From positions 7,523 through 26,961 of the forward strand of contig JBBIMK010000028.1 in the NCBI GenBank assembly GCA_037444445.1: a stretch of 19,439 nt of DNA, in the 5' to 3' direction. Below the pieces are notes generated by a model. The model had not been told where the DNA came from. It did not search any database and worked only from the letters and a program-made list of their open reading frames with translations. Positions 286 through 8,811 of this stretch are shown one piece after another; within the stretch, counting starts at the first letter, position 1; each line of letters opens with the position of its first letter. A program made the position numbers and the translations under genes. The stretch is from a bacterium. Lineage in GTDB: Bacteria; UBP7; UBA6624; JBBIMK01.

Positions 286-371
286 TCCGGGGTAGCTCAA
301 CCGGCAGAGTCCCGACGGAACCGTCGGGATTAACCCATAGGCTGCGGGTTCGCCCCCCGCCCCCGGAGCCA
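286..371 (+). tRNA. tRNA-like gene (86 nt, encoded CCA) with a non-canonical anticodon region; isotype undeterminable
   Basis: Acceptor stem TCCGGGG (286-292) pairs with CCCCGGA (361-367). T8 and A9 are present. D arm is GCTC-AACCGGCA-GAGT, with A14, G18, G19 and A21 in place. T arm is GCGGG-TTCGCCC-CCCGC. Discriminator G368 is followed by CCA at 369-371. The 33 nt between the D and T arms (311-343) form a perfect CCCGAC-GGAACC-GTCGGG hairpin plus 15 nt. No 5bp-7nt-5bp register pairs there. Confidence 0.5.
296..364. repeat. Direct repeat C, copy 2 (inside the full tRNA-like gene)
   Basis: Identical to 177-245. Confidence 0.95.
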
Positions 372-1532: not shown

Positions 1533-1637
1533 CCCCTGCAGGGTCAACCCCTATTTCCTCATTCTCTAAATCTCGTTTCCTACGCCTGTCTGACCTGGAA
1601 TCCATCCATTTCACTGGCGATTATAAACAGAGCACGC

Positions 1638-2099
1638 TCAATCAGGTTGAATTTCTTGCCTGACTTCATTCAGGATTACGAGGATTTCCTCGTAAGTTCC
1701 ATTCCCACCCATTTTGTCCCAGAACTCGTGTCCCATTAATAATGGATAGTCCATATCAATCACCCGTTTAGTGAATGAATGCCCGTATTTTTCCCTGTAA
1801 ATGTAAGGGTTATAGGGAAACGCAAGGTATCCTCCCCAATTTCTCTCACCCCTGGAGAGCATATAGGCGTAAAATGTAAGAATTTTCTTCTTTGATTCGG
1901 CACAGACATCCAGGTTGGGTAGAGGAGTTTTGACCTCGGCGAAGAAAGGGGCGCCATTCAGCCTTTCAATATACAGGTCAGCATTGAAAGGATAAAGTCG
2001 CTTCTCGGAAGATTTTTCTGATGTTTCAGCCAGCTCTCGTAGTTCAGTTTTATTCCTGCCGCCTCCAGCTTGTCAAGGAAGCCAAATATCACTGCTCAT
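1638..2099 (-). pseudogene. Disrupted PD-(D/E)XK-like nuclease gene (possibly TdeIII-type restriction-endonuclease-like); last gene of a 3-gene cassette
   Basis: The ATG at 2099-2097 overlaps the upstream stop in an ATGA arrangement. That frame hits an in-frame TGA at 2075-2073 after 8 codons, then stays open for 145 codons to the stop at 1638. An alternative start is GTG at 2092 in another frame (IFGFLDKLEAAGIKLNYESWLKHQKN). That frame needs a 1-nt shift near the A5 run (about 2013-2020) to join the long frame. The long frame contains NADLYIERLNGAPFFAEVKTPLPN, a D-x14-E-x-K nuclease-like signature. Confidence 0.5.
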
Positions 2100-2365
2100 C
2101 CGCCATATTTCTTCCTTCGCTCACACAGCCGCTTAACGTCTCGCACCGATACTAAGCCATCAGCCCGCAGGACATAGAGCGTTTCTTGGATGATTTCATC
2201 TCTGACATCACTTGTGGATAGGCCGAACTCCTTGCGCACCTTTTGCGTGAGTTGGTTAAGGTTCTCCGCTAACGCCTGCTCAGGTGTGTCACCTTCAGCG
2301 CTATCAACAAGATAGTAGGTAGGCACCTCACCCCAGCCACTAAAATAAAGAACTTCATAAACCAT
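2096..2365 (-). CDS. Hypothetical protein, 89 aa (no recognisable family)
   Basis: The ORF is preceded by GAGGAGG 11 nt upstream. Its stop overlaps the start of the downstream nuclease ORF (ATGA). The sequence is acidic with predicted helices (MVYEVLYFSGWGEVPTYYLVDSAEGDTPEQALAENLNQL...). Confidence 0.55.
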   Translation of the reverse strand: MVYEVLYFSGWGEVPTYYLVDSAEGDTPEQALAENLNQLTQKVRKEFGLSTSDVRDEIIQETLYVLRADGLVSVRDVKRLCERRKKYGG

Positions 2366-2381
2366 CTTTCATTTAACCTCC

Positions 2382-2516
2382 TCAAAGAAATTCTTTGATT
2401 CCTTCAGACCACTGTTGTTTCTCAAACGGGCGGAACAACTTTAAAAAGTTCTGCCCGCTCAGATACCTCGCGTCTCCTTCAATCACCATATCCAGAAAGC
2501 GGTTTATTTCGCTCAT
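2382..2516 (-). CDS. Hypothetical small protein, 44 aa (below the ORF-track cutoff)
   Basis: Manual translation gives MSEINRFLDMVIEGDARYLSGQNFLKLFRPFEKQQWSEGIKEFL*. It ends 16 nt before the 89-aa ORF, and its stop lies just upstream of that ORF's GAGGAGG. A TATAAT (minus strand, 2533-2528) sits 11 nt upstream of the ATG. Confidence 0.35.
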   Translation of the reverse strand: MSEINRFLDMVIEGDARYLSGQNFLKLFRPFEKQQWSEGIKEFL

Positions 2517-2528
2517 CCTTTATTTCCA

Positions 2529-2543
2529 TTATATAACATATAA
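2529..2543. promoter_or_regulatory. Inverted repeat TTATAT-AAC-ATATAA overlapping the putative -10 of the minus-strand cassette (candidate operator)
   Basis: The 6-3-6 palindrome was read directly. It overlaps the minus-strand TATAAT at 2528-2533. Confidence 0.3.
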
Positions 2544-2618
2544 CGAAAAGGATTTACGCGGGCAAGTTTTCAATGACAACTGTGTTATGATTAGGGCTGG
2601 AAGGGATAGTGAAAAGGA

Positions 2619-8118: not shown

Positions 8119-8811
8119 TTATTTTACACCGTGTTTGCCGGGTTCTGAAACACAGGAAAGGTAGCCTCGCCAGATGAGGAGAATACCGATAAACTCCATT
8201 CCATAAAGCACCTCCGTGTATCCGAAGCGGGTGAAGGCGCCTCCAATGCCGGGCAGGAGCGCCCCCGCAGCAATGAATATATTTCCGATGAAGCGGTGGT
8301 AAGTATCTGTGCGTTTGAAGTATTTGTATGCGGAGAGGGCGGCTCCGCCGACTAAGAATATCAGGGCGTAGAGATTGACGAAGGGACTGAAGAGCCTTAC
8401 CCAGCCCCATTCCATTACCCGCCCCGTCAATCGGTGGGCCTCCACCAGGTCCCTCCGAATGGGGACGATGAGGATAAAGGAAGAGGCGACAGCGATGTAG
8501 GCCAGCAGGGCAGAGGTGAGGAAATTTGCCACCCGTTTGTTCAGATGGAAATATACGGAGCCTTGAGCCAGAGGAGCACCGCCCAGCAGAGCGCCTGAAA
8601 TATACCAGAGCCGAAAAACAACCGGATTCCACCCGAATAGCGTTACAAGGCTCTCGGTCAAAGTTCCAAGTCCGTAGGTGAAAATCCCTCCCGTCCACCA
8701 CCCCAGGTGGGGCGGACGGGATTTCTGAAGATACCGCCGATAAAGGGAAATCCCGAATATCACAGAGAGAACCGTCGTGAGAATGGGAACATAGTGTACC
8801 AGGGAAGACAT
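8119..8811 (-). CDS. Uncharacterised polytopic inner-membrane protein (about 6-7 TM) embedded in the TonB uptake operon
   Basis: 230-aa ORF that is strongly hydrophobic and rich in Gly and aromatic residues. It starts 13 nt after the receptor stop and ends 10 nt before exbB. No family was recognised. Confidence 0.6.
   Translation of the reverse strand: MSSLVHYVPILTTVLSVIFGISLYRRYLQKSRPPHLGWWTGGIFTYGLGTLTESLVTLFGWNPVVFRLWYISGALLGGAPLAQGSVYFHLNKRVANFLTSALLAYIAVASSFILIVPIRRDLVEAHRLTGRVMEWGWVRLFSPFVNLYALIFLVGGAALSAYKYFKRTDTYHRFIGNIFIAAGALLPGIGGAFTRFGYTEVLYGMEFIGILLIWRGYLSCVSEPGKHGVK

Follow-up and report, generated by a model that had tools for sequence, protein, structure and literature searches.

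The stretch of DNA considered here, hereafter the window, comprises 19,439 nucleotides (nt) of contig JBBIMK010000028.1, from a bacterium of the UBP7 lineage. Near its left end, at positions 286-371 of the plus strand, lies an 86-nt gene that resembles a transfer RNA (tRNA) gene. It stands between two incomplete copies of an open reading frame (ORF) for a small GIY-YIG nuclease, and is followed by genes for a GTPase and an AddB-like protein. It is the sole tRNA-like call made by ARAGORN in the 19.4-kb window, reported as 'tRNA-???' with a 4-nt 'anticodon loop', gaac. A preliminary description of the locus had recognised the tRNA hallmarks of this gene, its promoter and its want of a canonical anticodon arm, and had proposed that it could be a decayed tRNA, a tRNA with a non-standard anticodon loop or a non-decoding tRNA mimic tied to the GIY-YIG genes.

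Read directly from the sequence, the gene has a 7-base-pair (bp) acceptor stem (TCCGGGG/CCCCGGA), a D arm (GCTC-AACCGGCA-GAGT) that contains G18G19 and a G10-T25 wobble in its stem, a T arm (GCGGG-TTCGCCC-CCCGC) with T54-Psi55-C56, a discriminator G and a CCA encoded at 369-371, largely as first described. The upstream promoter was also correctly recognised: an extended -10 element, TGGTATAAT, lies at 264-272, with 13 nt between its end and the first tRNA base. What the gene lacks is a 5-bp/7-nt anticodon arm with U33 and an anticodon. The interval between its D and T arms is occupied instead by a 20-nt hairpin module at 310-329 (TCCCGACG-GAAC-CGTCGGGA), followed by TTAACCCATAGGCT. The presence of a hairpin at this place had been noticed, but its stem is 8 bp long with a GAAC loop and not 6-7 bp. 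No 5-7-5 arm can be formed. The minimum-free-energy structure is that of a cloverleaf from which the anticodon arm is missing (-42.3 kcal/mol, z = -2.45). The A58 that pairs with T54 is also missing; position 58 is indeed C, the T loop reading TTCGCCC against TTCGACC in the two related contigs described below.

The ARAGORN and Rfam checks that the preliminary description had called for assigned neither an isotype nor an anticodon. The Rfam tRNA model RF00005 did not match 286-371 at its gathering score (29 bits), nor at E<=10, in searches of 461 nt and 106 nt, and no Rfam family reached its gathering score anywhere in the window, in which ARAGORN found no transfer-messenger RNA either. Other RNA classes were considered and rejected. 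A YrlA/Y RNA-like match reaches 20.1 bits, where the gathering score is 69, and joins T-arm and D-arm pieces of the two tRNA-derived copies present in the window. The best sub-threshold Rfam match (305-375), at 21.9 bits, is to the Streptomyces small RNA Scr3202, whose gathering score is 52 and whose consensus has a first hairpin (GuCCCGaCG...CGGGaC) similar to that found here, probably by coincidence. Matches to Proteo-phage-1, 6C and CRISPR-DR57 are far under their gathering scores, and all remaining ones are at or below 21.9 bits. A class II tRNA with a long variable arm was discarded for want of a 5-7-5 arm and in view of the orthologue, a class I tRNA-Asn, and a tRNA-Sec was likewise rejected.

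The origin of the gene can be read from two related contigs. The first, L088, is a Logan contig that was reached through P0135, a cluster mate (>=90%) of the window GTPase (549-1532). It shares 95-96% nucleotide identity with the window over about 11 kb and therefore represents a conspecific or sister strain. The second, L007, is a JGI contig on which a GTPase with 75% amino acid (aa) identity to that of the window is followed by the same AddB-like gene. Both contigs carry an intact tRNA-Asn(GTT) gene with the same promoter and the same acceptor, D and T arms as 286-371. The tRNA-Asn of L088, TCCGGGGTAGCTCAACCGGCAGAG-CGGTGGGCTG-TTAACCCATAGGCTGCGGGTTCGACCCCCGCCCCCGGAGCCA, scores 68.4 bits on RF00005 and is given the anticodon GTT by ARAGORN; on its 5' side lies TGCTATAAT, followed by a spacer that ends in ...TGGTGGCT. 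The window, L088 and L007 have the -10 element and the TGGTGGCT spacer in common, and 246-285 of the window is the native tRNA-Asn upstream region. According to alignments A3 and A5, only two differences distinguish 286-371 from the intact tRNA-Asn: the replacement of positions 25-34 and A58C. The replacement exchanges CGGTGGGCTG for TCCCGACGGAACCGTCGGGA, by which C25, G26, the 5' strand of the anticodon stem, C32, U33 and G34 are lost. All that is left of the anticodon arm is TTAA and the 3' stem strand, with no GTT in a 7-nt loop, and for want of an anticodon arm and a GTT anticodon the gene cannot decode. Its near-identity outside the hairpin to the bona fide tRNA-Asn of its relatives, promoter included, shows that the resemblance is not due to chance. 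Exact scans for the hairpin with its flank (CCCGACGGAACCGTCGGGATTAACCC) gave no match in the collections genome_contigs and metagenome_contigs, nor did a gapped tRNA-Asn pattern in metagenome_contigs, the lineage being rare in these collections.

On L088 the order is promoter, intact tRNA-Asn, 14-nt spacer, GIY-YIG ORF and a 5'-truncated tRNA-Asn remnant. The 3' end of the ORF runs into 'TCAACCGGCAGAG TCCCGACGGAACCGTCGGGA TTAACC' and then into unrelated sequence, and the hairpin is exactly that of the window. Since the hairpin lies on L088 in a remnant beside an intact tRNA gene, and in the window within a full-length tRNA copy, the window carries the recombinant arrangement. It is thus very probable that 286-371 is the resident tRNA-Asn(GTT) gene partly overwritten from the cassette remnant, that is, a non-decoding pseudo-tRNA left as a by-product. 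Among the three options of the preliminary description, a decayed tRNA comes closest, although the change is not random decay but a precise swap of positions 25-34 for a cassette hairpin. Transcription and end-processing of the product of 286-371 probably continue.

The surroundings of the gene bear marks of duplication and rearrangement. Three features had been missed in the preliminary description: a second copy of the altered tRNA segment at 177-245, a 55-nt repeat and the derivation from tRNA-Asn. Positions 177-245 and 296-364 are identical (69/69 nt, hairpin and A58C included) from the D loop to the T arm, and 1-55 perfectly repeats 451-505, which sets a period of 450 nt; the first 505 nt of the window thus correspond to about 1.1 copies of a 450-nt unit. 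The window or contig begins inside the first GIY-YIG ORF copy (1-221), of which the C-terminal 73 codons remain, ending in TAG at 219-221; this copy has 93.5% nucleotide identity to the L088 cassette, and its last 15 or so codons are read from the tRNA-derived remnant. This remnant (177-245) is a 5'-truncated tRNA-Asn that begins in the D loop and reaches into the 3' acceptor strand, with the hairpin at 191-210. It directly adjoins a further hairpin inside the ORF tail (158-177, GTCCCGC-CTAAAA-GCGGGAC), whose stem is of the TCCCG/CGGGA type of the cassette hairpins, and the succession of hairpin, D-loop piece and hairpin is laid out as in locus L012, discussed below. The second ORF copy (384-509) starts with an ATG 12 nt past the CCA and is cut after codon 41 (STKP, stop) at a rearrangement junction at 505-508. 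To the left of 508, cassette material is fused to the GTPase promoter within the truncated ORF; from 508 rightwards the window is collinear with the GTPase promoter and gene of L088 (L088 6098 onward). On L088, the tRNA-Asn and its cassette lie 3.8 kb from the GTPase gene, on the opposite strand, and the spacer between the TrmO and GTPase genes is empty.

Joining 384-505 to 56-221 reconstructs a GIY-YIG protein of 95 aa. It is a bare catalytic domain (PF01541, E 8.4e-15), the Pfam match covering residues 3-72 only, and the conserved Tyr/Tyr/Arg/His/Glu set is present, with Y6, Y17, G19, R27, H31, N32 and E63 invariant in alignment A1. Its relatives measure 79-101 aa, and in proteins of this size no DNA-binding domain is recognisable beyond the catalytic GIY-YIG domain. 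At E<=1e-10, a profile search recovered about 8,257 cluster representatives (50% identity), most of them 80-130 aa long; no relatives were found in IMG/VR viral contigs, and NCBIfam assigns no family to the small protein. Assignment to a defence system was rejected as unsupported, PADLOC giving only faint matches (PDC-S14, E 0.004; UzuA, E 0.006). In many database members the GIY-YIG domain begins at residue 20-47 of a 100-130-aa gene call, and these N-terminal extensions look like starts called too far upstream, through the adjacent tRNA gene. Several C-terminal tails of the family, in turn, look like translated tRNA remnants, such as ...SPDGTVGINP in the window.

The association of such nucleases with altered tRNA copies extends well beyond this lineage. 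With alignment A2, 79 GIY-YIG loci were recovered from contigs representing one genome per species (genome_contigs), spanning Bacteroidota, the Melioribacteraceae/Ignavibacteriaceae of the Ignavibacteriota, Neomarinimicrobiota and Patescibacteria. Their common architecture consists of a tRNA gene, an ORF of about 80 aa for a GIY-YIG protein and a tRNA remnant in which arms have been swapped for hairpins with the stem T-S-C-Y-G-A-Y. A tRNA gene on the same strand, belonging to one of many isotypes, lies at most 300 nt away in 57 of the 79 loci and usually ends 20-70 nt ahead of the ORF start. Where the tRNA is upstream, 32 of 44 loci have a tRNA-derived remnant immediately past the ORF that scores above every shuffle; where it is downstream, a 5' tRNA fragment lies upstream of the ORF in 6 of 11. 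The flanks of the remnants are about 100% identical to the neighbouring tRNA, from which they differ in specific arms. At tRNA-Leu, tRNA-Asp and tRNA-Pro loci the remnant has TCCCGA(Y)...(R)TCGGGA in place of the anticodon stem, with part of the loop retained, and several loci have exchanged the T arm too. Other loci have one or two hairpins, (T)GCYGAC...GTCRGC(A), inserted precisely where the 5' strand of the T stem passes into the T loop. Positions 25-34 are replaced as in the window in the tRNA-Asn remnants of L055 (Saprospiraceae) and L014 (Neomarinimicrobiota), which read GAGT-CCCGA...TCGGGA-TTAA.

Cassettes often occur in tandem, and 5' tRNA fragments with hairpins often form arrays (L012, L015, L017, L023, L035 and L077). 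In L012 (700-1350), and also in L015 (1070-1340) and L017 (880-1340), tandem units of 98-120 nt lie upstream of an intact tRNA-Leu(TAA), each made up of about 35 nt of tRNA-upstream sequence and the 5' two-thirds of the tRNA-Leu, with one TCCCGA...TCGGGA hairpin in the D loop and another in place of the anticodon arm; one or two GIY-YIG cassettes follow these arrays. A different module is found upstream of the ORF in Flavobacteriaceae loci that have a tRNA-Ala downstream of it (L003 2908-2990; L026, L049 and L060, about 1417-1466; L051 1436-1474), in which a 5' tRNA fragment of about 11 nt (GGGGAT...) is fused to a long hairpin, AGCCCGCCCG-17 nt-CGGGCGGGCT. The tRNA-Asn-linked loci L010 and L011, from one metagenome-assembled genome of the Melioribacteraceae, are both at contig ends; their remnant begins in the anticodon loop (GTTAACCG...), the T arm and not the anticodon arm is replaced, by GTCCGGC-AACT-GCCGGAC, and the downstream terminator is duplicated as well. 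A search of the literature on GIY-YIG proteins in connection with tRNA, pseudo-tRNA, COG2827, UPF0213 or hairpins found no description of these bacterial cassettes or hairpins, in a single paper collection that offers no proof of novelty; nothing but the papers on SegB, considered below, came to light.

The hairpins themselves are conserved and concentrated around the nuclease genes. In the stem consensus T-S-C-Y-G-A-Y, position 1 is a T-A pair in 71% and position 3 a C-G pair in 73% of cases, and positions 2, 4 and 7 vary together with compensating partners. Motif hairpins occur within -60 to +200 of the stop codon in 29 of the 79 loci, against 0.4 in shuffles, and perfect stems starting with TCCCG number 36, where 0.2 are expected; the density of hairpins amounts to 35 per 25 kb near the ORF and 5 per 96 kb far away from it.

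The proposed origin of the window arrangement starts from a small mobile cassette inserted at the resident tRNA-Asn. This cassette consists of a spacer of 12-14 nt, a stand-alone GIY-YIG gene of about 95 aa and a 5'-truncated tRNA copy bearing the hairpin in place of positions 25 to G34. Recombination or gene conversion would then have moved the hairpin from the remnant into the tRNA gene, with homology supplied by the shared 5' flank TCAACCGGCAGAG and 3' flank TTAACC.... A likely trigger would be breakage of the tRNA gene by the cassette's own nuclease and the ensuing repair, which, if made from the nearby remnant, would copy the hairpin into the gene, homogenise both copies and favour local duplication. 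All three effects are present in the window, as a hairpin in the gene, identical copies and a local duplication. The 450-nt unit would later have been partly duplicated and rearranged next to the GTPase gene. The hairpin may mark an uncleavable, element-borne version of the arm, the T-S-C-Y-G-A-Y hairpins acting as a cis module that replaces or interrupts the tRNA arm otherwise cut or recombined. By analogy with free-standing homing endonucleases, the cassette can tentatively be pictured as an element that breaks tRNA genes, its own version of the arm being immune to cleavage, and that spreads or amplifies by homologous repair; this mechanism is a serious possibility, if somewhat short of probable.

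A broader and more speculative proposal, which at present must be regarded as rather doubtful, is that the GIY-YIG genes and their hairpins constitute an as yet undescribed class of autonomous mobile cassettes, minimal in size (about 350-450 bp) and aimed at tRNA genes in several bacterial phyla, whose nuclease of about 80 aa recognises hairpins or cruciforms and which move by 'arm swapping'. The structures recognised would then be the arms of tRNA genes and the cassette's own hairpins, the swapping would proceed by break repair or by single-stranded hairpin recombination, and pseudo-tRNAs, 286-371 included, would be either footprints or cis sites.

Several observations weigh against the overwriting of a resident gene by a homing-type cassette, or limit how far its history can be followed. 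ARAGORN finds no second, intact tRNA-Asn in the 19.4-kb window, so viability depends on a copy that is out of view; a functional tRNA-Asn must exist elsewhere in the genome, possibly immediately upstream of the contig start. The stem is conserved across phyla beyond what immunity to cleavage needs, from which it follows that the hairpin probably has a function in cis. As the nuclease is devoid of a recognisable DNA-binding domain, it can only conjecturally be credited with sequence-specific homing of the SegB kind, and it may instead recognise hairpins or cruciforms in the way of hairpin-dependent elements. The 55-nt repeat begins exactly at base 1, so that the order and number of units upstream, and with them the exact history, cannot be reconstructed. 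A simple unequal crossover was considered as the source of the junction 245|246, where the remnant meets the native promoter region, and was rejected, as it does not reproduce the observed order. The GIY-YIG ORF of L088, finally, has no in-frame ATG: at L088 2207-2222, minus strand, ATA stands where the window has its in-frame ATG, and the ATG of L088 is out of frame. That copy may be inactive, which would fit the intact tRNA-Asn adjoining it.

It could be argued that 286-371 encodes a tRNA-like RNA which does not decode but has a function for the cassette, either as a processing handle by which RNase P and RNase Z would free a GIY-YIG mRNA starting 12 nt downstream, or through a hairpin that binds and regulates the nuclease as an RNA antitoxin or a decoy would. 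The gene does retain its promoter, acceptor stem, D arm, T stem and CCA, with the ORF beginning 12 nt past the CCA; the stem sequence is kept across phyla with the compensatory changes at positions 2, 4 and 7 already mentioned, and the pseudo-tRNA arrays upstream of ORFs in L012, L015 and L017 loosely recall the repeat arrays of type III toxin-antitoxin systems. However, L088 has a normal tRNA-Asn at the same place, and hence a mimic of full length is not conserved as a gene. Near-invariant positions of the T loop are altered both in the window (A58C) and in L055 (T54C), whose full-length hairpin-bearing tRNA copy is the sole comparable one elsewhere, and most hairpin-bearing copies in other genomes are without the 5' acceptor strand and/or the T arm and would not adopt a tRNA-like fold. 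Neither do the stems show an excess of G:U-type over A:C-type mismatches, as compared in search of selection at the RNA level (6 versus 9), although with such small numbers this is weak evidence. A functional RNA is thus an unlikely explanation, and 286-371 is most likely a by-product of cassette activity and not a gene with a function of its own. The notion of a mimic, as first put forward, retains the link to the GIY-YIG genes and the inability to decode, but not the functional, conserved gene.

Still less probable is an assembly artefact, in which the gene would be a chimera of the intact tRNA-Asn and the remnant or of two strains of the metagenome. The start of the window probably is an assembly boundary, as the window opens with a sequence that is repeated at 451-505 and whose 55 nt are a typical k-mer length; the repeats are perfectly identical, and the conspecific contig L088 is arranged differently. 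But the homology between the tRNA gene and a remnant of the L088 type extends only 13-14 nt to the 5' and 6-7 nt to the 3' of the hairpin, which is too little for a de Bruijn chimera. The two 69-nt copies lie 50 nt apart, less than the length of such a k-mer, which would require reads spanning copy, spacer and copy, and tandem cassettes and full-length hairpin-bearing copies occur in independent assemblies from other phyla. As for a decoding tRNA with an unconventional anticodon arm, or with a small intron whose removal would restore tRNA-Asn, it is scarcely credible despite the tRNA-like character of all parts outside the anticodon arm and the retention of TTAA and the 3' anticodon-stem strand, given that G34, U33, C32 and the 5' stem strand are gone, which disposes of the non-standard anticodon loop once suggested, that removal of the 12 extra bases yields GTCGG-GATTAA-CCCAT with a stem mismatch, a 6-nt loop and no GTT, that neither a bulge-helix-bulge motif nor a group I intron is present, and that the Rfam tRNA model goes unmatched.

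Further differences between the window and L088 lie outside the cassette. In the interval between the GTPase and AddB-like genes (L088 7123-7956), L088 encodes a HinfI-family restriction enzyme (PF09520) on the minus strand. The corresponding interval of the window (1533-2618) can be aligned with L088 as far as 2011 and once more from 2538 on, and between these points holds a segment of different size with only short minus-strand ORFs (1638-2365). This interval may be a variable island of restriction-enzyme or other small genes. A hairpin of the TCCCG...CGGGA type, TCCCGTCC-17 nt-GGACGGGA, is kept in both strains (8689-8721 of the window, L088 14020-14052) and sits in the TonB/ExbD region, distant from any GIY-YIG gene.

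Among known systems, the phage enzyme SegB is the closest experimentally studied analogue of the cassette. SegB of phages T4 and T6 is a GIY-YIG endonuclease encoded among tRNA genes, which recognises a T-stem-loop motif and cuts tRNA genes at the T loop (PMC2330249), and in T6 it drives the recombination-dependent tandem amplification of a unit composed of tRNA and a C-terminally truncated segB (PMC13096335). The cassettes share with it the GIY-YIG catalytic domain and the position at tRNA genes, in 57 of 79 loci generally and at tRNA-Asn in the window and L088. The window, moreover, shows a partly duplicated unit of tRNA copy and GIY-YIG gene with one ORF truncated, and many related loci have hairpins exactly at the junction of T stem and T loop. 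In contrast to SegB, the cassette proteins, of about 80-95 aa, consist of the catalytic domain alone without an extra DNA-binding domain; the cassettes are chromosomal, with none among the IMG/VR viral contigs; and they carry a tRNA remnant with T-S-C-Y-G-A-Y hairpin arms, of which no description was found for Seg elements.

Integrase-borne islands and prophages at tRNA genes are similar in leaving a partial direct repeat of the tRNA (often its last 21 nt or so, from the T loop to the 3' end) beyond the insert, in restoring an intact tRNA on one side and in forming tandem insertions. The cassette unit, however, measures about 350-450 bp and has no integrase, the GIY-YIG gene being its only ORF, and its repeats are often far longer, from the D arm to the 3' end, with arms swapped for hairpins. 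Hairpin-dependent mobile DNA, such as the ends of IS200/IS605, REP/RAYT and integron attC sites, relies on HUH/Y1 or tyrosine recombinase enzymes. The cassettes resemble it, as an analogy that implies no membership, in that short conserved GC-rich hairpins with compensatory stem changes flank a small nuclease gene; they differ in that the enzyme is a GIY-YIG nuclease and in that the hairpins lie within copies of the tRNA that is targeted. The UPF0213 proteins BH0048 (PDB 1ZG2) and EF2693 (PDB 1YWL) have the same size and domain and show weak but significant similarity to the cassette protein (E 7.6e-4 and 2.7e-3), but these are structural-genomics entries described as 'hypothetical' by their depositors, and neither a functional study nor a tRNA or hairpin context was found for UPF0213 proteins in the paper collection searched.

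As a specific finding, damage to a tRNA gene by a mobile cassette is nothing out of the ordinary, and it is the cassette family that merits attention. For annotation, it means that 'tRNA-???' calls of this type beside small GIY-YIG genes are cassette-converted copies of tRNA genes and not new tRNA species or mimics. The intact tRNA-Asn with its cassette on L088 and the hairpin inside the tRNA gene of the window form a before-and-after pair, which shows that cassettes can inactivate their host tRNA gene and that local duplication and rearrangement go with them. If the cassette is mobile, which its anatomy suggests, it would rank with the smallest of autonomous DNA elements and would represent a bacterial, chromosomal counterpart to phage SegB, whose cutting of tRNA genes and segmental amplification have recently been shown experimentally, and the question of how so small a nuclease locates tRNA genes would become directly testable.

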